Of a DNA stretch of 42,047 bases, positions 19,240-29,456 are shown in pieces. Location: assembly GCF_051903065.1 (NCBI RefSeq), contig NZ_CP178441.1. One strand, written 5' to 3'. The DNA comes from Escherichia coli (GTDB lineage Bacteria; Pseudomonadota; Gammaproteobacteria; Enterobacterales; Enterobacteriaceae). The position numbers and the translations under genes were made by a program. The notes under the pieces were generated by a model. The model was not told the DNA's origin, ran no database searches, and worked only from the letters and a program-made list of their open reading frames with translations. Position 1 is the stretch's first letter; the number at the start of each line of letters is the position of its first letter.

Positions 19240-19503
19240 GCCTTTCTGCTTTTCCCACCACTCCGGTGGTTTCCCTCTCTGTATGGTCGATTTTTATACC
19301 GTAACAGGCTGTTTTTTATACTTTCACCGATTCCCGGGCACACTTAGCCTGTGTCAGGCCGGCATATACCTCAGTAGACTGATATCCCGCGCGTTTTTCT
19401 TCAGCCCTGATACATTCAGCCCCGCAATGGCCCGGCGGTATACCATCCGGCAGCCACACAGCACGCATTCGAACGGGTCACGACTCAGGAACTGTTTCAC
19501 CAT

Positions 19504-21878: not shown

Positions 21879-22090
21879 GTCATTCAGATAAAAGGTCCGA
21901 GTTTTTGTATATGTTCCGGCGTTGCAGAACGATAGATACAGTTGAACGCCTTTATGAACATAAGCGGGACATTGTTTCTTCTGAACATCTTAGCGATTTT
22001 CTGAGTGCTTATGATCATCGCAAGGCAGAAATTTATCATGGAAAAATCTGGGATAAGGTTCCTGCGTCTGCCTGGCGGAATGTGAAATAA
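21875..22090 (+). CDS. hypothetical protein (71 aa), coupled to the upstream secreted protein gene
   Basis: GTGA start/stop overlap. Followed by a strong hairpin terminator. Confidence 0.4.
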   Translation: MSHSDKRSEFLYMFRRCRTIDTVERLYEHKRDIVSSEHLSDFLSAYDHRKAEIYHGKIWDKVPASAWRNVK

Positions 22091-22120
22091 AACAGCCGGG
22101 TAAACCCCGGCTGTTGTTAA
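22091..22120. terminator. bidirectional terminator hairpin (AACAGCCGGG-TAAAC-CCCGGCTGTT) between convergent operons
   Basis: 10-bp perfect stem with T-rich and A-rich flanks. Confidence 0.65.
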
Positions 22121-22122
22121 TT

Positions 22123-22135
22123 TTTAGCGGCTAAA
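22123..22135. promoter_or_regulatory. KorB-type operator TTTAGCGGCTAAA
   Basis: Perfect OB consensus between convergent genes. Confidence 0.55.
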
Positions 22136-22146
22136 ATAAATGAACG

Positions 22147-23133
22147 TTAATCATCATGGTCCAAAGGAGCTGAGTTTTTAATAGCTTCAATTTCATCAAG
22201 CAATCTTTTATTACGCTTTATTGCATCTTCAATGCGACGAATCAGCGCCTCATCACCTTTCCAGTAATTAAATTTACCTCTTTGACTTTTATCCCAAATA
22301 TCCTCCCACCACATGCTTTCATTTACACGATAATCCTTGAGAAGCATCAGTGGATAGGCTTGTTCCTCTTCTCTGATTTGCTTATAAGCAGATCGCGGCA
22401 TAAGGTAGCCTTTGACGTTTACATCAAGTTTGACAAAACTCTTGTACAGCGCCCGAAGAGTGACAAAAAAATCAGCCAAATCAGACTCGCCACCGGCTCC
22501 AATGACTTCACTTACGTGTAGGTTTGTCCAGAACGCATCAACATACCGTGTATTTTCAAACTCACGGAGTATCAGAAGTGCTCCTATATCACTATCTTCC
22601 CTTAGCAGCCTGATGTCTGTGACTTTATTACCATCACTATCAGGTCTGAGAAGGTGCTTAACAGCAGCCCGGCCTGTGCCGTGCATTCTGACGCCTGAGT
22701 TCCATTCATACACATCCCCCTCACCGTGAATTAACCAGTCGGCGCGACAACCAAATAACTTGCTTAACCGCTGCAGCTCAGTGAAGGAAGGGAGTACGTC
22801 ACCACTGAACCAGTTGGCGACAAGGCCAAGATCTTCAATCCCCAGCTCTACGGCCACATTGGACGGCACAAGAGGTTTGTAGTTACGGAATTGGTTGGTT
22901 TTCCGCAGAACTGTATTGAGGCGGCCAGACACTTCCTGCCGGTATAGTTCTTCTCCAGAATAAACCTGCTCAGGAGGTGCTATCCATTTCAACAGAGCAT
23001 AGCGGGCCTCACCTTCGACCGAACGTTGATTTTCGTTTGCTAACTGTTCTAGGGCGAAATATGCATCGTCCGGGAAATTTCTGACCTGAAATTTTTTCAT
23101 AACGCACCATTTTGGGAGAATGTGTGGCTTCAT
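22147..23133 (-). CDS. RHH (Arc/CopG-like) plus XRE-HTH-like protein with a large unknown C-terminal domain; start may be the internal ATG at 23100
   Basis: N-terminus KKFQVRNFPDDAYFALEQLANENQRSVEGEARYAL is RHH-like. A mid segment ...LQRLSKLFGCRADWLIHGEG is HTH-like. Downstream of a KorC-operator promoter region. Confidence 0.55.
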   Translation of the reverse strand: MKPHILPKWCVMKKFQVRNFPDDAYFALEQLANENQRSVEGEARYALLKWIAPPEQVYSGEELYRQEVSGRLNTVLRKTNQFRNYKPLVPSNVAVELGIEDLGLVANWFSGDVLPSFTELQRLSKLFGCRADWLIHGEGDVYEWNSGVRMHGTGRAAVKHLLRPDSDGNKVTDIRLLREDSDIGALLILREFENTRYVDAFWTNLHVSEVIGAGGESDLADFFVTLRALYKSFVKLDVNVKGYLMPRSAYKQIREEEQAYPLMLLKDYRVNESMWWEDIWDKSQRGKFNYWKGDEALIRRIEDAIKRNKRLLDEIEAIKNSAPLDHDD

Positions 23134-23207
23134 AATGAGGGCGGTTTGTCTTCATTGAAAGTTTCAAATTAATTCTATATGTATCTATTTGTTTTCAATA
23201 AGATCTA

Positions 23208-23414
23208 TTAAAAACCAATAAGTCTGCATTCATGGCTGACCATTTGGCTCAGGTAACGTGGTATCTGCTCGACCAAGTGGATGTTCGTCTCAGCGAGTTT
23301 TTCAATCTCATCAATGGTAACGGTTGGCAGAGCATGGATGAAATCTGACAGGGAAAGATGCTCCAGTGGCCGTCTGTCATATGATGCTGTTTTGCTATAG
23401 GATATACGGGACAT
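23208..23414 (-). CDS. small hypothetical protein (68 aa), first gene downstream of the KorC operators
   Basis: AAGGAA RBS upstream of the ATG. Confidence 0.5.
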   Translation of the reverse strand: MSRISYSKTASYDRRPLEHLSLSDFIHALPTVTIDEIEKLAETNIHLVEQIPRYLSQMVSHECRLIGF

Positions 23415-23445
23415 TTCAAATTCCTTGCACGGATTTTAGGTGTCG

Positions 23446-23471
23446 GATAGGGAGGTTGCAGCCTCCCTATC
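23446..23471. repeat. perfect 10-bp inverted repeat GATAGGGAGG-N6-CCTCCCTATC
   Basis: Read directly. Lies in the divergent intergenic region next to the KorC-type operators. Confidence 0.6.
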
Positions 23472-23481
23472 ATCCTTTGTA

Positions 23482-23524
23482 TAGGACATTATGTCCTGCA
23501 CCTATGATAGGACATTTTGTCCTA
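23482..23524. promoter_or_regulatory. two KorC-type operators (TAGGACATTATGTCCTG at 23482..23498; TAGGACATTTTGTCCTA at 23508..23524) in a divergent promoter region
   Basis: Same 17-bp palindrome family as at 1255..1271 and 41307..41323. Confidence 0.6.
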
Positions 23525-23567
23525 TTTGCAAGTGATTTTCAAACCGTCTAAGGATTGGGAGTGCGCC

Positions 23568-23678
23568 GTGCTATATATGTTAATCTGCAGTGTTCTGATG
23601 CTGGCACTGGTAAATGGCAAAAGTAAAGATTTGACTAAAGGCATTGATAAGCTGCAGGATGAATTTAAAGATAAATAG
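23568..23678 (+). CDS. possible small hydrophobic peptide (about 36 aa, GTG start)
   Basis: Short ORF with GGGA RBS and a hydrophobic N-terminus (LICSVLMLALV). Below the ORF-track size cutoff. Confidence 0.3.
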   Translation: MLYMLICSVLMLALVNGKSKDLTKGIDKLQDEFKDK

Positions 23679-23692
23679 AAGGAAGAGAATTA

Positions 23693-23890
23693 ATGGAAAT
23701 TTTCTTGAAGCCGCTGGGTATGGGGGCAGTGGCTGTATTTATCGGGATTGTTTTGCTCTGGCTTATTCCTGAATATAAAAAGACGCCCAGGAAAGCGGCT
23801 GTAGCTGTAATTAATATCGGAGTAGCTCTCATGCTCGCGGTGGCAGTAGGAATGATTGCAGTGATGATGATGACGCCAGCAGGAACCTGA
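23693..23890 (+). CDS. small membrane protein (65 aa, two predicted TM helices)
   Basis: AGGAAG RBS. Almost entirely hydrophobic sequence. Confidence 0.5.
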   Translation: MEIFLKPLGMGAVAVFIGIVLLWLIPEYKKTPRKAAVAVINIGVALMLAVAVGMIAVMMMTPAGT

Positions 23891-23898
23891 GAAAACTC

Positions 23899-23911
23899 TT
23901 TAGCGGCTAAA
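23899..23911. promoter_or_regulatory. KorB-type operator TTTAGCGGCTAAA
   Basis: Perfect OB consensus 9 nt after the 23693..23890 stop. Confidence 0.55.
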
Positions 23912-24060
23912 ATCGTAGCCGCTGATTTTACGAAATTTTCTTTTTCTTGGCGTAAATCGCATAGCAAATGACAGTAATCACAGCCCAGCAAATAATAAAA
24001 GGGTAGCTCTAAAAGAAGCCAAAGGGGAAATATAAAAAATAAGAGCAAATATTTTCATGT

Positions 24061-24948
24061 TTAACCCTCACCGTAAAGTAAACGTATTTGTTTGATAACG
24101 TTAGCCGCATCACCATTAACAAGTTTATGAAATTCTACAGCCATATCCTTTAGCTCGCTATCTTTCAGCAGCAGCTGCAGTCTCCCTAAGAAAAGTGACC
24201 ATGGTTTTTCGCTATCCATACGGCGGCCAAGGCGGGTATACGTACCGGCGTGGCATTTAGATTCTTCACCATTATGTACTGCGTTCATGAGCCTCACCAG
24301 TGCAATGAAAGTATCCCAATCATGGCGGGTATCAAATTGCGCGGTTTCACAGGTAAACGCCAGAACAGGAGGGCGGTTATCCTCCGGTGTATCGAAGGAA
24401 TTACTGTCATTTCCCCGGACAATAATCGTAAAGGTCTTGTTCCCAACCGTAAACGAATAATCGACGGATTGGATGCCTACCGGCGCGTGTTCGGTTGCAA
24501 ACGTCCTTCTGGATTCTTCATCACGAATATAGAAGCGATGTGCAAAGCCGAACAGATCCTGATAATAGTTAAGACTGCTTTCTATTAGGGTATTATCGAT
24601 GCGGTCACGTATTGCAAAGTAATCAGGGCCAGCCAAATGTTTGCTATCCAGTTGCTTCCTGGCCGCATCTGTCAAAAAAGCTATTTCAGCGGGAGTCAGA
24701 TCAGCAGGTTCATTTGTATTCCAAGGATCGCAAATTTTGTGATGAAGCCTTGAAAGCGTTTTGACCGGTTCAGCTACAAGCCGTGTAAGTTCATTCTGTG
24801 TTCCGTCATTAGCAATATTGTTTAGTGAGTTCTCTATCAGGTTAACCAGGAAAGCGTTAACTGACAGGTTACTTGCTTTTGCATAGGTTTTGATGCGCTC
24901 GACTTGCTCTCGCGACGTTCGCAATGAAATCTGTGTTAACTCCATCAT
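24061..24948 (-). CDS. RHH-domain protein with large unknown C-terminal domain, apparent paralog of 22147..23133 (ORF track start 25008)
   Basis: N-terminus ISLRTSREQVERIKTYAKASNLSVNAFLVNLIENSL is RHH-like. AGGAG RBS before the ATG at 24948. C-terminal region shows loose similarity to that of the 22147..23133 product. Confidence 0.55.
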   Translation of the reverse strand: MMELTQISLRTSREQVERIKTYAKASNLSVNAFLVNLIENSLNNIANDGTQNELTRLVAEPVKTLSRLHHKICDPWNTNEPADLTPAEIAFLTDAARKQLDSKHLAGPDYFAIRDRIDNTLIESSLNYYQDLFGFAHRFYIRDEESRRTFATEHAPVGIQSVDYSFTVGNKTFTIIVRGNDSNSFDTPEDNRPPVLAFTCETAQFDTRHDWDTFIALVRLMNAVHNGEESKCHAGTYTRLGRRMDSEKPWSLFLGRLQLLLKDSELKDMAVEFHKLVNGDAANVIKQIRLLYGEG

Positions 24949-24958
24949 TTCACTCCTA

Positions 24959-24985
24959 TTGAATGATTTATCATTGAATGATGCT
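24959..24985. promoter_or_regulatory. candidate operator: AATGAT-TT-ATCATT palindrome plus a third AATGAT direct copy, upstream of the RHH gene
   Basis: Repeats read directly in the leader of 24061..24948. RHH regulators commonly autoregulate through such repeats. Confidence 0.35.
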
Positions 24986-25175
24986 ACCACATCTAAAAGT
25001 GATGTCATTTCATTTTTATCACATTAATGGCTTTTTTAAGTTGCCTTGATTGACCTAGCCAGTTTAAGCTGTATTTGCAGTAAAAAAGCCATACACTTAA
25101 CGAGTGGGCTTTTAGGGTATACCTTAATTAACTAGCCTACGCATTTACTTTAAAGGCACTTGAGAAGGAGATTAA

Positions 25176-25541
25176 ATGAATTTTATTGCTTTATGGCCTT
25201 TATTGCTGGCCCAAGTGACAGTGATGTCACTGACAGTGATTTTTCTTGCTGCTGACAGGCGTTTTTTTTCATGGGACTGTTTTGTTGTTTGCACTCTGTC
25301 CATGATGATGGCAGAAGGTATTGTTATTATGAAATATGAACTGTGGCATATCCCTCCTGCCCTGCTGGGTCTGGCAGGAGGGTTGTCATGGTCGCTGCTG
25401 CTACTCCATACAGGATATTTCTCAGGCATATCAGAAGGAGCGCATAAGCGTTTGTGGCTCGCTGTCGCCGCAGTGTTTTCTGGTGCGGGAATGATTATAT
25501 TCTACTGGTTGCTCCATGCATCAGAAAACATAATTAAATAA
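25176..25541 (+). CDS. small integral membrane protein (4 predicted TM helices)
   Basis: GGAG RBS. Hydrophobic throughout. Confidence 0.5.
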   Translation: MNFIALWPLLLAQVTVMSLTVIFLAADRRFFSWDCFVVCTLSMMMAEGIVIMKYELWHIPPALLGLAGGLSWSLLLLHTGYFSGISEGAHKRLWLAVAAVFSGAGMIIFYWLLHASENIIK

Positions 25542-25624
25542 CGAATGGATAATGCGAGAAAGAGACATAACCAGAGAATATTGATAGATGATTGCGTGAT
25601 TGATTTGCTGGGGTATTTTATTAT

Positions 25625-26239
25625 ATGAAAATAGCGCGAATATATTTGCGGGTTAGTACAGACGAACAAGATTTAACCCGGCAAAATGAAATTATTGAAA
25701 ATGCCAGGAATAATGGATTCTATGTTGCCGGTATCTATAAAGAAAAGGCGTCCGGTGCAAGAGCTGACCGCCCGGAACTGCAACGTATGATTGATGATCT
25801 GCAGCTAGACGAAGTAGTTATTGCAGAACATATAGATCGTATCAGTCGTTTACCGCTCGATAGTGCGTTAGCGTTAATAAACTCTATAAAAGAGCGGGGA
25901 GCGAAGCTCGCCATTCCCGGTATTGTGGATCTTACCGAACTGGCAAACGCTCAATCCGGTGTCGCGAAGGTCGTTCTGGAATCTGTTCAGGATATGTTAC
26001 TCAAAGTTGCCCTACAGTTGGCAAGGGATGAGTATGAAAACCGTCGTAAACGCCAGAAAGAGGGTATTGAGCTGGCTAAACGGCAAGGCCGGTATCAGGG
26101 GCGAACTGCAAATCTACGGCTCCATAAACGCATCATTGAGTATCGTTCAAGGAAGACGAGTATTGCGGAAACAGCGAAACTTTGTGAATGTAGCGTTAGT
26201 CTTGTAAAAGCTGTATGGTCTAAACATAAAAATAAGTAA
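25625..26239 (+). CDS. serine recombinase (resolvase/invertase family)
   Basis: Catalytic N-terminal motif YLRVSTDEQDLTRQ and a C-terminal HTH. Typical length of about 200 aa. Confidence 0.85.
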   Translation: MKIARIYLRVSTDEQDLTRQNEIIENARNNGFYVAGIYKEKASGARADRPELQRMIDDLQLDEVVIAEHIDRISRLPLDSALALINSIKERGAKLAIPGIVDLTELANAQSGVAKVVLESVQDMLLKVALQLARDEYENRRKRQKEGIELAKRQGRYQGRTANLRLHKRIIEYRSRKTSIAETAKLCECSVSLVKAVWSKHKNK

Positions 26240-26270
26240 TTAAATTTAAATAATATAAGGTAGAGATTAA

Positions 26271-26639
26271 ATGAGCAAAGAAATTAGAGCGGAAAGAATC
26301 AAGAATGTAATTCTGGAAAACTCGACTTATGAAGAACTGGCCGAGAAGACTGGCATTAGCGTGAGTACGCTGGTCAGGATAGCGTCCGGTAAAACTGAAC
26401 CTAAGTTCAGTGATATTATTAAAATTGCGATGGTGACAGGCGTTGATTTAAATGAATTGGCACATGGAGATATTGTTAATATAAAGGAAGATGCAATGCT
26501 AAAAAATGATAAGCAAAATGACGAAGTTGTTAAGGCTCATAATTTCATCGTCTGGAATATATCCAGTTTAGATAAAAAAGATATATTATCTATATCAAGA
26601 ATAGTTTACGCACTTTCGACTTTGAAAAAAAAGCCCTAA
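26271..26639 (+). CDS. XRE-family HTH transcriptional regulator
   Basis: HTH segment YEELAEKTGISVSTLVRIASGKTEP. AT-rich codon usage. Confidence 0.6.
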   Translation: MSKEIRAERIKNVILENSTYEELAEKTGISVSTLVRIASGKTEPKFSDIIKIAMVTGVDLNELAHGDIVNIKEDAMLKNDKQNDEVVKAHNFIVWNISSLDKKDILSISRIVYALSTLKKKP

Positions 26640-26803
26640 TTATTTAATAATGCATAACAAACGTATAAATGTTTTGGTTTCTAACTTCTTTTATTAAAGG
26701 GTGAGGAATGGTCCCTCCCCGCCCTTAATACGCCAGAACAAAGCAAAAAAGAGGCATAACGACACGACCAGCATTAGCATGTTTTAGACGCTAGACGCAA
26801 AAA

Positions 26804-27911: not shown

Positions 27912-29456
27912 TCAGAACTTTGACTTGTTTTTAAATTGTTCGTATTCATCACCACTTTGTGATGTTTGTGTATCTATAGAACCAGTATTTTCTGTTTGAG
28001 TCGTTGTTTGCTCCTCCCCTCCAAGACTGTCGCCGTTGAACTTGTTACTTGTTGTTATGCTCCCGTAGCCAAAAGATTCTTCTGTGTTGTTCGATTGACG
28101 TTCAACAGTTTGCGAACGGATTTGAGAAGCGAGCTTTCCACCTGGAGTTTGTGCAATGATGTCTCTTGCCGCTCTGACTTTTGAGTCATGCTTGGCTGCA
28201 TTGCGTGCAGCCAGGCCGTTAGCCAAACTATTCGCCATATGCGAAGCCATGCGGCCAGCTCGTGAGAATGATGAAGCAAAGCCCTGGCTTCCTCCACTGG
28301 AACTACCTGTACTGTTCTCTGCAGACGAACCACCGGAACCGCCTGATGGTTGTCCTCCAGAAGTATCTACAGAACCGGTATCCTCCCCACTTCCAAATCC
28401 TCCACCTGAACCGCCTTTACTACCAGTACTAGACTCTTCGGCCATCGCTGCTTGTGCCGATTCAAATGCCGCTTTAAGTGCTGATGCACCTCCGGCAGCA
28501 TTTGCAGCACCTGCTGCCGCAGCAGCGCCAGATGCTGCTATTGCGGCTCCTGCTGCAGCAGCAGCCCCAATAATTGCACCGGCACCAAAGCCACCAATGC
28601 CTTGCATTGAAGCACCGCCTACAATACTGCCAACCATAGGAGGAACTTTATTAACAAGAACCAAAAGAACAATTGAGGCTACAAGCATTACAAACATAGA
28701 TTTCATTTGTACTGCGTCATCGCCCATTGCCTGGTAATACTGGTCTATGAAGGATTTTCCAATACCAACAATTAGAACCATTGTGAACAGCTGCAGGGCA
28801 ATTCCTAGAACTGTTTTGAAGTATGTAATGGCAATATCGGAAGTCCAACGAGCCCCCCCAAAACCGAGTAAGAAAATACCGCCGTAACTTAAAATCCAGC
28901 CGGTAATCAGCAGAAGAAGCATATTCACACCGACAAGTGCTAATACGCATAGAATAACTCCGGCTAAAATCAAGCCGACAGTGGAGTCTGCCGGGGACCA
29001 AATAGAAGACTGGTCAACGACTCTTGATACGATATCAAACCCTATATCTACAATGCCCGAAGGCGAGAATGATTTTGATAAACCAGAAGCATTAGCCGCG
29101 AGTTGACGTAATGAATCCTGAATATCTACCGATATTGCCGGGCCGTTTTTTAGCAGATAGAAGAAAAAACCTAACACAGCAAAAAAACGAACTACTTCCG
29201 CAAGAGCTGCCGATAATCCTTCGCCCTGCATTGCCATCATTGCGAATGTCCATACCATTGAAATTACCGCTAATGACCAAAATATCCAGGTCGCGTAATT
29301 TTGTATGGTTCCAGCCCAGGTGCTGGCAACATTTGCAAAGCGCTTAAGGATATCATCAAGTAACCCAGCACTATCTAATGGCGCAGCCTGTGCCTGTGTG
29401 CTGATTAATATCAGCAACACAGATAAGCAAGGATAAATTAGATGCCTGAATTTCAT
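27912..29456 (-). CDS. trbL: TrbL / VirB6-like polytopic inner-membrane protein with Gly/Ser-rich C-terminal tail (ORF track start 29507)
   Basis: Signal peptide from MKFRHLIYPC, multiple TM helices, and a low-complexity G/S/A-rich C-terminus. Confidence 0.7.
   Translation of the reverse strand: MKFRHLIYPCLSVLLILISTQAQAAPLDSAGLLDDILKRFANVASTWAGTIQNYATWIFWSLAVISMVWTFAMMAMQGEGLSAALAEVVRFFAVLGFFFYLLKNGPAISVDIQDSLRQLAANASGLSKSFSPSGIVDIGFDIVSRVVDQSSIWSPADSTVGLILAGVILCVLALVGVNMLLLLITGWILSYGGIFLLGFGGARWTSDIAITYFKTVLGIALQLFTMVLIVGIGKSFIDQYYQAMGDDAVQMKSMFVMLVASIVLLVLVNKVPPMVGSIVGGASMQGIGGFGAGAIIGAAAAAGAAIAASGAAAAAGAANAAGGASALKAAFESAQAAMAEESSTGSKGGSGGGFGSGEDTGSVDTSGGQPSGGSGGSSAENSTGSSSGGSQGFASSFSRAGRMASHMANSLANGLAARNAAKHDSKVRAARDIIAQTPGGKLASQIRSQTVERQSNNTEESFGYGSITTSNKFNGDSLGGEEQTTTQTENTGSIDTQTSQSGDEYEQFKNKSKF

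Follow-up and report, generated by a model that had tools for sequence, protein, structure and literature searches.

The window, by which we mean the whole stretch of 42,047 nucleotides analysed here, is an IncP-1-like conjugative plasmid of about 41.7 kb. Its segment from 22000 to 26700 is 100% identical to Salmonella plasmid pCFSA664-2, the record of which lists trfA, korA-like/incC/korB, kfr, tra, and trb genes, and 12 KorB operator boxes were found in the window. The locus of interest, that of orf295, is present in about 110 PLSDB plasmids, for example pHNFP671 and pJJ1886_4; IncP-1-like plasmids of this type are widespread in the Enterobacteriaceae and carry mcr-1, cfr, CTX-M, and similar resistance genes. 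The features at the locus are as follows.

24061..24948, minus strand: orf295, 295 aa, with a predicted Arc-like RHH domain (about residues 5-43), a helical linker, and a modelled PUR/Whirly-like C-terminal fold
24953..24957, minus strand: Shine-Dalgarno sequence AGGAG, 4 nt 5' of the ATG at 24948, conserved in close relatives
24958..24979: imperfect 22-bp dyad ATTGAATGAT-TT-ATCATTGAAT, centred at 24968/24969
24962..24967: hexamer 3, AATGAT on the plus strand and ATCATT on the gene strand, adjoining the Shine-Dalgarno sequence
24970..24975: hexamer 2, ATCATT on the plus strand and AATGAT on the gene strand
24977..24982: hexamer 1, AATGAT on the plus strand and ATCATT on the gene strand, overlapping the final two bases of the −10 box
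24981..24989, minus strand: extended −10 element TGG-TAGCAT, from promoter scan and conservation, with −10 hexamer TAGCAT at 24986-24981
25008-25003, minus strand: −35 hexamer ATGACA, from promoter scan, 16 nt from the −10 hexamer
25002..25017, minus strand: conserved block AAAAATGAAATGACAT, holding the −35 ATGACA and a tandem AATGA pair
25027..25092: 12-nt perfect inverted repeat ATGGCTTTTTTA / TAAAAAAGCCAT, arms at 25027-38 and 25081-92
25029..25060, minus strand: direct repeat R2, GGCTAGGTCAATCAAGGCAACTTAAAAAAGCC, adjoining the orf295 promoter and conserved across lineages
25107..25137, minus strand: direct repeat R1, GGCTAGTTAATTAAGGTATACCCTAAAAGCC, containing the GTATAC palindrome
25112..25127: 16-bp palindrome TTAGGGTATACCTTAA with core GTATAC at 25117-25122, the probable res crossover subsite
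25176..26639, plus strand: divergent operon of orf121, resolvase, and HTH protein
25176-25541, plus strand: orf121, membrane protein, first gene of the divergent operon
25625-26239, plus strand: ParA-type serine resolvase, in the divergent operon
26271-26639, plus strand: HTH protein of 122 aa, weakly TrbA-like, last gene of the divergent operon

The original prediction had taken 24949-25175 as the leader of an RHH gene with repeats that would serve as its operator. Most of this interval proved not to be leader; it holds the probable res site of the resolvase and the control region of the divergent operon. The repeats are confined to 24958-24982, a fraction of the interval, and reach from the end of the −10 box to the Shine-Dalgarno sequence that precedes orf295.

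The gene arrangement recurs in distant relatives. At homolog loci L005 (71% protein identity), L006 (69%), L004 (61%), L003 (56%), L002 (47%), and L013 (34%), orf295 is divergent from an operon of small ORFs with the resolvase, and at L002, L003, L005, and L013 that operon also includes an SNase nuclease gene. Downstream of orf295 there is a variable ORF for a small membrane or secreted protein, here a 26-aa remnant; no toxin gene follows orf295, only such small ORFs or a remnant. The locus had been called accessory, and by this comparison orf295 is a conserved neighbour of the putative res site in the IncP-1-like clade, not simply accessory. It is dispensable all the same, since it is naturally deleted from about codon 6 in CP035638.1 and pSTEC2018_607-e, where promoter and leader are retained. 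A second RHH/HTH protein encoded at 22147-23100 was considered as a paralogue and rejected, as BLASTP found no similarity between it and orf295. The sole PADLOC match was JetA-like, weak (E 7e-4), and not interpretable.

We examined the N-terminus of orf295 by several methods, and they bore out the claim that the gene encodes an RHH protein. A profile of 17 family members matched Arc in hhalign (probability 88.5%, E 2.7e-6), a phmmer search of the PDB with residues 1-49 gave Arc repressor as the best match (E 0.028), and Foldseek aligned the N-terminus with Arc at probability 0.99 and TM 0.69. Pfam matches among the 17 members were to DUF6364 (11/17, best 4.4e-7), HicB (8/17), and Arc (3/17); orf295 of the window, taken alone, stayed under the Pfam cut-offs (NikA-like, E 0.0025). 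The predicted RHH layout consists of a TQISLRTS strand, an REQVERIKTYAKA helix, an NLSVN turn, and an AFLVNLIENSL helix, and the AF2 monomer model has helices at residues 13-25 and 30-43 with pLDDT of 76-82. All 17 homologs share R10, V30, and N31, and Q6 and S29 hardly vary; in the reading strand TQISLRT the Q, S/T, and R are kept down to 24% identity; Q6, S8, and R10, which we take to be the DNA-facing residues, parallel Gln9, Asn11, and Arg13 of Arc. Membership of orf295 in the RHH superfamily is thus supported by sequence comparison and by modelling, and its C-terminus models as a PUR/Whirly-like fold. The family is small, with 23 clusters at 90% identity and 30 matches among 1.84 billion representative proteins. 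We rejected the idea that orf295 is a ParD antitoxin on account of its 295-aa length and the lack of any ParD/ParE match in Pfam or NCBIfam.

A promoter scan of 24800-25300 yielded a sole sigma-70-like site, that of orf295 on the minus strand. Its −35 block and its TGnTAnnAT motif are retained at loci with 34-71% protein identity, TGnTAnnAT at the same position in all IncP-like homolog loci, and a de novo search for k-mers common to the leaders of seven lineages returned the −10 region only, as TGGTA/TGATA. Consensus match and phylogenetic conservation both showed support for this predicted promoter. In the pHNFP671 annotation the gene starts at ATG 25008 and encodes 315 aa, a reading which would make the repeats coding, with SFN encoded twice. 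We rejected it because the extension has an in-frame TAA in L009 and L010, no Shine-Dalgarno sequence precedes 25008, and every homolog begins M(M)E/D-x-x-Q. A 12-mer, ATGnnATGwCAT, precedes the start codon by about 54-68 nt in the window, where it overlaps the −35 box, and in L004, L005, L006, L017, and L021. Its background is about one match per 5 kb, and upstream of the remote homologs it sits in unrelated contexts; as a candidate for the cognate site it either rivals the hexamer cluster or adds to it. By eye, a TGAT-N3-ATCA dyad was seen over the −10 box in L002, L005, and L019 and, with one mismatch, in the window. Judged against the extended −10 consensus this dyad is largely accounted for, and it is a possible family-wide lead.

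Read directly, the plus strand from 24958 is ATTGAATGAT-TT-ATCATTGAAT-GATG. The predicted AATGAT-TT-ATCATT palindrome and third AATGAT are there as exact copies, and a repeat search recovered them as well. The hexamers are separated by TT at 24968-69 and G at 24976, that is by 2 bp and 1 bp, and on the gene strand the order after the −10 box is ATCATT-C-AATGAT-AA-ATCATT-CAAT, followed by AGGAG (24957-53) and ATGATG (24948). Note that a further ATCATT at 24944-49 is merely the ATGATG start codons. The repeat search also gave an alternative reading, a 10-nt direct repeat of ATTGAATGAT at 24958-67 and 24973-82 with a 15-bp period, which could have arisen as a 15-bp tandem duplication. The leader offers the repeated elements of which an operator with subsites spaced at about a helical turn or less would be made, namely three exact hexamers with 1- and 2-bp spacers, the 22-bp dyad, and the direct repeat. 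No further copy of the 10-mer or of the 13-mer palindrome was found near other promoters of the plasmid, and the idea of a regulon was rejected on this ground; a single copy on the plasmid fits a local rather than a global operator.

The repeats exceeded chance expectation moderately, and the signal was not overwhelming. The exact 14-mer pattern with at most one mismatch is expected 0.22 times per window. Shuffles of the 42-kb sequence yield on average 0.38 clusters of three hexamers inside 25 bp, and the window has two more of these in addition to the one in the leader, each in coding sequence, one at 25218 and the other an overlapping pair at 28494/28503. For the 63-nt promoter-leader, p is about 0.10 for a perfect inverted repeat with 6-bp arms and about 0.05 for a 10/10 dyad with one mismatch, and the local significance of the dyad is marginal; the corresponding value for the 10-nt direct repeat is about 0.001. 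The strongest of the chance statistics is the density of the pentamer AATGA/TCATT, which occurs six times in 24940-25025 versus 0.34 expected (Poisson p about 2e-6); nowhere else in the 42-kb window are there at least five per 86 bp. Of the six pentamers, the repeats supply three and the conserved −35 block two, and the last is at the start codon.

We compared the leader among close relatives. Over the 71-bp promoter-leader, 18 of the 110 related plasmids have the window allele, and 84 of the 110 are 90-95% identical to it, with genes about 97.6% and proteins about 98% identical; sequenced representatives of those 84 have one mismatch each in hexamers 1 and 2 and an identical β-strand. The haplotype set comprised 20 close-relative sequences, 9 of them from the 11 loci of a metagenome pattern scan, and fell into three classes.

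Haplotype A: ATCATT-C-AATGAT-AA-ATCATT, protein E3/E14
Haplotype B: ATCATT-C/T-AATGTT-AA-ATCATT, protein E3/D14
Haplotype C: ATCGTT-G-AATGTT-AA-ATCATT, protein D3/D14

The natural allele sequences are ATCATTCAATGATAAATCATT for the window, ATCGTTGAATGTTAAATCATT for the pHNFP671 type, and ATCATTTAATGTT for L009. The exact palindrome is restricted to haplotype A; the sequence of haplotype C is the commonest leader in relatives and occurs with an unchanged Q6-S8-R10 reading strand. Hexamer 1 is polymorphic (ATCGTT), hexamer 2 is AATGTT in all fetched relatives outside the haplotype of the window, and hexamer 3 is intact in 19 of the 20 close-relative sequences, the remaining one having TTCATT. Haplotype C has a perfect dyad with 7-bp arms, TTGAATG-N6-CATTCAA, at the same centre (24968/69), and both allele classes are one mismatch short of an ideal 20-bp palindrome, with the mismatches at different positions (p about 0.05 each). 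In haplotype A the triple hexamer is unchanged across four promoter-spacer variants, and within haplotypes there were 7 changes in the 13-nt promoter spacer versus 2 in the 25-nt leader (Fisher p=0.007). The substitutions E3D and E14D track the hexamer alleles without exception; we did not count this as co-evolution because the sites are physically linked, less than 70 bp apart. From promoter to codon 14 the alleles are 7-10% divergent versus about 2.4% for the gene, and this higher divergence of the 5' segment suggests recombination between alleles. The perfect-palindrome allele was found with differing divergent-operon contexts, for example in the 55-kb plasmids L023 and L024.

Beyond the close relatives the repeats disappear. 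The intergenic blocks that align across lineages are GTATACCC(A/T)AAAA, GGCTTTTTTAC, ACAGnTTAAACTGGCTAGGnCAA, AAAAAAGCC, AAAAATGAAATGACA, and TGnTAnnAT, and the interval from the −10 box to the Shine-Dalgarno sequence is unrelated among loci at 34-71% identity. The leaders of these homologs contain neither AATGAT/ATCATT repeats nor a significant dyad, although their proteins retain Q-x-S/T-x-R and SVN; the leaders of L003-L006 are unrelated, without a significant dyad, even though the Q-S-R face of the protein is the same. The site is thus neither conserved nor co-varying with the presumed DNA-reading residues, and the main argument against the autoregulatory-operator reading is, on this comparison, that the reading head is conserved while no such site goes with it.

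The adjoining region has properties of its own. Its direct repeats R1 and R2, each about 31 nt, align with a score of 12 versus a best of 7 among 2000 shuffles, most lineages keep both the ATGGCTTTTTTA and TAAAAAAGCCAT arms, L013 having matched C>T and G>A changes, and an inverted AAAAGCC pair also lies within the block. The window resolvase is 66.7% identical to ParA of the IncP-1 plasmid pAKD17, GTATACCC(A/T)AAA is found just upstream of parA in pAKD17, and GCGTATACCCAAAA immediately upstream of the same gene. Among the cis sites recognised in IncP-1 plasmids is the parA-res region (PMC7765201). Because the block has repeated subsites, because the gene for a ParA-family serine resolvase lies beside it, and because the GTATAC palindrome is also found upstream of IncP-1 parA, 25027-25145 is probably the res site of this resolvase, with crossover at GTATAC, by prediction at its central AT. 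In four plasmid pairs GTATAC is a sharp mosaic boundary, identity being about 97-100% on one side versus 45-58% on the other; this switch is compatible with site-specific crossover and also with homologous recombination in a conserved block. If the res reading holds, recombination at this boundary explains the mosaicism of the backbone. GGTATACC occurs a second time, at 19437, between unrelated, GC-rich flanks, and this copy was taken as chance.

We propose tentatively, as the best of the explanations considered though short of calling it probable, that the hexamer cluster is a repressor-binding site through which orf295 represses its own synthesis. As far as the original operator claim is concerned, the placement from the −10 box to the Shine-Dalgarno sequence and the hexad architecture speak for it, the cluster being predicted to overlap the promoter of the regulator's own gene, while the exact palindrome, with its 18 of 110 plasmids and its absence at 34-71% identity, does not have the conservation that such a site would be expected to show. 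We infer binding by orf295 and the resulting repression as follows. The site would lie in the part of the orf295 promoter that is transcribed first, transcription being predicted to start at about 24974. Dimers of the Arc-like RHH domain would occupy AATGA/TCATT-type subsites extending from the −35 block (AATGA-AATGA-CAT) past the −10 box as far as the 22-bp dyad beside the Shine-Dalgarno sequence. Bound orf295 would then occlude the −10 box, the transcription start, and the Shine-Dalgarno sequence, blocking RNA polymerase and possibly the ribosome, and the outcome would be negative autoregulation of orf295. In an alternative form of this proposal, the repeats would be the promoter-proximal part of a longer, weakly constrained array of AATGA type. 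What keeps the operator idea alive is the dyad of haplotype C, the constancy of haplotype A across spacer variants, and the lower polymorphism of the leader; this leader conservation could also be due to 5'UTR or translation constraints. On this reading the exact palindrome is a lineage-specific, near-optimal version of a degenerate site, and not a family-wide operator. A candidate RHH operator is an ordinary kind of feature, and this one is exact in one plasmid lineage only.

It is also quite possible, if again less than probable, that the cluster has no dedicated function and is the product of drift, of a small tandem duplication, or of recombination in an AT-rich leader, in which case any autoregulation would act through the −35 block ATGAAATGACAT or a dyad like TGAT-N3-ATCA. 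This explanation would account for the loss of the motif at all more distant homolog loci with the reading residues conserved, for its polymorphism among genes whose proteins are 98% identical, and for the raised divergence between promoter and codon 14, and it is in keeping with inverted-repeat p values of merely about 0.05-0.1, with the occurrence of similar triple-hexamer clusters by chance or in coding sequence, and with the recurrence of ATGnnATGwCAT, and not of the palindrome, upstream of the remote L017 and L021. It does not account for a leader significantly less variable than the promoter spacer within haplotypes, a dyad centre kept in two allele classes, an AATGA density unique in the window, or the low p value of the direct repeat.

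We consider it unlikely that the cluster is an operator for some other regulator, such as a host factor, the 122-aa HTH protein, or the second RHH/HTH protein (22147-23100). Genes for several DNA-binding proteins do lie within 3 kb, and a lineage-specific binder would predict no co-conservation of the site with orf295; what the divergent operon contains does vary among lineages, with a mosaic boundary at GTATAC. However, the known candidates failed: the best Fur box in 24941-25010 matches 9/19 positions versus the at least about 13/19 to GATAATGATAATCATTATC looked for, the AATGAT/ATCATT halves being 2 bp apart instead of 1 (elsewhere in the window 21 sites reach 13/19 and one reaches 14), and the IncP-1 KorB boxes are elsewhere. 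IHF, ArgR, and CRP sites, compared by eye only, were poor matches to consensus. In addition, the motif has no second copy near any other promoter of the plasmid, and the perfect-palindrome allele pairs with different divergent-operon contexts (L023, L024).

An RNA-level element, in which a repeat pairs with the Shine-Dalgarno sequence and damps translation or the leader forms a hairpin, is very unlikely. A UCAUUC:GAGUGA pairing that covers part of the Shine-Dalgarno sequence is predicted in the 5'UTR at −4.9 kcal/mol; the fold, however, is no better than that of shuffled sequences (z −1.27, with 22 of 200 shuffles folding at least as well), AU-rich 6-bp arms with 1-2 nt spacers are unable to form stable hairpins, and the pairing is not conserved in other lineages. 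Rfam gave no match within 23000-26000. Scarcely credible, finally, is an accessory subsite of the adjacent res: the cluster is within 50 bp of the conserved block at 25027-25145, and the RP4 res site sits together with the divergent promoters in a single intergenic region, but the block is conserved in all lineages and the hexamers are not, the hexamers have no motif in common with the R1, R2, or AAAAGCC repeats, and half-sites of 6 bp set 1-2 bp apart leave too little room for serine-resolvase dimers, the subsites of Tn3-family res being about 25-34 bp.

If the cluster is a true operator, as we tentatively propose, it is the place from which an uncharacterised backbone gene is controlled. Its practical value is modest, a defined promoter-operator pair with natural allelic variants for direct comparison; perhaps more useful than the palindrome are the putative res site with its GTATAC boundary, the conserved extended −10 promoter, and the family combining an RHH head with a PUR/Whirly-like fold. 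That fold otherwise serves single-stranded nucleic-acid binding. A broader proposal, which we regard as improbable, is that orf295, with its RHH head and PUR/Whirly-like fold, binds the AATGA array and perhaps single-stranded or res DNA and so couples its expression to plasmid maintenance or multimer resolution; orf295 would then have taken the place of parDE beside res in the IncP-1-like clade. If true, such coupling would make this not a simple autorepressor but a plasmid stability or regulatory module of a new kind.

The nearest known systems are ParD/parDE, Arc, omega, and RelB-relO. In RK2/RP4 an autoregulated RHH gene, parD, lies beside parA/res, and ParD autoregulates parDE. Like parD, orf295 is divergent from a resolvase operon with a probable res in the shared intergenic region, and, as in RK2 parCBA, relatives combine parA with an SNase-type parB, orf295 being in the parDE slot; unlike ParD, orf295 has no Pfam ParD match, a different architecture, and no ParE. 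Arc of the phage P22 immI region aligns with the N-terminus of orf295 over the β-strand, helix A, and the start of helix B, with Q-x-S-x-R in orf295 corresponding to Q-x-N-x-R in Arc and an SVN turn in both; however, Arc has 53 aa, whereas orf295 has 295 aa with an extension of about 250 aa (the helical region and the PUR/Whirly-like fold). Arc dimers bind adjacent operator subsites, and the operator overlaps a promoter; its 21 bp hold TAGA subsites at a distance of about 11 bp and do not resemble AATGAT/ATCATT in sequence. The omega repressor of the pSM19035 inc18 plasmids binds as an RHH dimer to 7-bp units, direct or inverted, in arrays over promoters, and the window units likewise recur every 7-8 bp with alternating orientation. 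The omega unit, WATCACW, is different in sequence, and omega, of 71 aa, regulates globally through numerous arrays on each plasmid, where the present plasmid has one site.

RelB of E. coli relBE is a small antitoxin with a toxin as co-repressor, whereas orf295 is not followed by a toxin gene. Its operator, relO, has four 6-bp repeats, [A/T]TGT[A/C]A, two per strand, within the promoter, each hexad is contacted by an RHH dimer with autorepression as the result, and the hexads form contiguous 12-bp palindromes in which no spacing is tolerated (PMC2812701); the window has spacers of 1 and 2 bp. Hexads on both strands are, from relO, an established design of RHH operators (PMC2812701), which supports the description of the repeats as typical of RHH sites, and like relO the window presents 6-bp units of alternating orientation in a promoter and leader.

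Besides orf295, the minus-strand gene (24061-24948) with an Arc-like ribbon-helix-helix (RHH) N-terminus, and the divergent orf121 membrane protein gene, the window contained the following elements.

Elements around orf295 (window coordinates unless stated)
25112-25127: conserved palindrome TTAGGGTATACCTTAA, core GTATAC at 25117-25122, inside the block 25027-25145
25002-25013: 12-mer ATGnnATGwCAT, also at 273-284 of L017 and 2440-2451 of L021, loci of remote orf295 homologs
25214-25241: CAGTGA-TG-TCACTG-A-CAGTGA, within the 5' coding region of orf121
23470-23535, minus strand: near-identical palindromes TAGGACAaaaTGTCCTA and AGGACAtaaTGTCCT, upstream of a 68-aa ORF (23208-23414)
~23170-23207, minus strand: three ATAGA boxes (aATAGATc, aATAGATa, tATAGAAt), upstream of the second RHH gene (22147-23100)
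22123-22135, 23899-23911 and 10 other sites: KorB boxes TTTAGCSGCTAAA

The TTAGGGTATACCTTAA palindrome is a sharp mosaic boundary among related plasmids, which in four pairs switched there from 97-100% identity on one side to 45-58% on the other. The sequence GTATACCC(A/T)AAA is also found directly upstream of parA in the IncP-1 plasmid pAKD17. Taken together with the direct repeat R1/R2 (25107-25137 and 25029-25060) and the 12-nt inverted repeat (25027-38 and 25081-92), the block is probably the res site of the resolvase. Two natural plasmids, L008 (CP035638.1; 3960-4260) and L026 (NZ_CP075702.1), have lost orf295 from about codon 6 and yet retain its promoter, its leader and the res-like block. 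L026 has ATGACATGACATCAC as its −35 block, and 10 bp are duplicated within its promoter spacer.

The 12-mer stands ~54-68 nt before the start codon both in the window group and upstream of remote orf295 homologs, which are 24-28% identical and lie in unrelated genomic contexts; it may be a cis element common to the whole family, or else the actual site for RHH binding. The cluster inside orf121 matches the AATGAT/ATCATT/AATGAT cluster of the orf295 leader in its 6-2-6-1-6 geometry and its 15-bp period, and shares with the orf295 promoter −35 region the 10-mer AGTGATGTCA, whose only two copies in the window lie at 24998 and 25220. Since the cluster encodes VTVMSLTV, its pattern may have arisen by coincidence from the coding sequence; L009, another related locus, has it unchanged.

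Two nucleotides past the orf295 stop codon begins a 26-aa ORF (23978-24058, minus strand), a truncated remnant of the 56-82-aa signal-peptide protein found in relatives L011 and L012. Other lineages have, downstream of orf295, a gene for another small membrane protein or for an HExxH membrane protein. Farther on, the TAGGACAaaaTGTCCTA/AGGACAtaaTGTCCT palindromes, followed by a hairpin, GATAGGGAGG-ctgcaa-CCTCCCTATC, resemble a pair of operators at which some regulator would bind. The ATAGA boxes are a possible operator for the second RHH protein (317 aa; FitA-like RHH plus an HTH_3 segment). KorB boxes numbered 12 in the window versus 0.06 expected, and those at 22123-22135 and 23899-23911 flank the orf295/second-RHH region, which therefore lies within the IncP-1 global KorB network.

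The C-terminal half of orf295 (residues ~160-280) was modeled as two beta-beta-beta(-beta)-alpha units, whose closest structural neighbors, Pur-alpha/PURA, MRP1/2, SsgA-like and Whirly proteins, are single-stranded nucleic-acid binders. An RHH head is unusual in combination with such a predicted PUR/Whirly-like fold.
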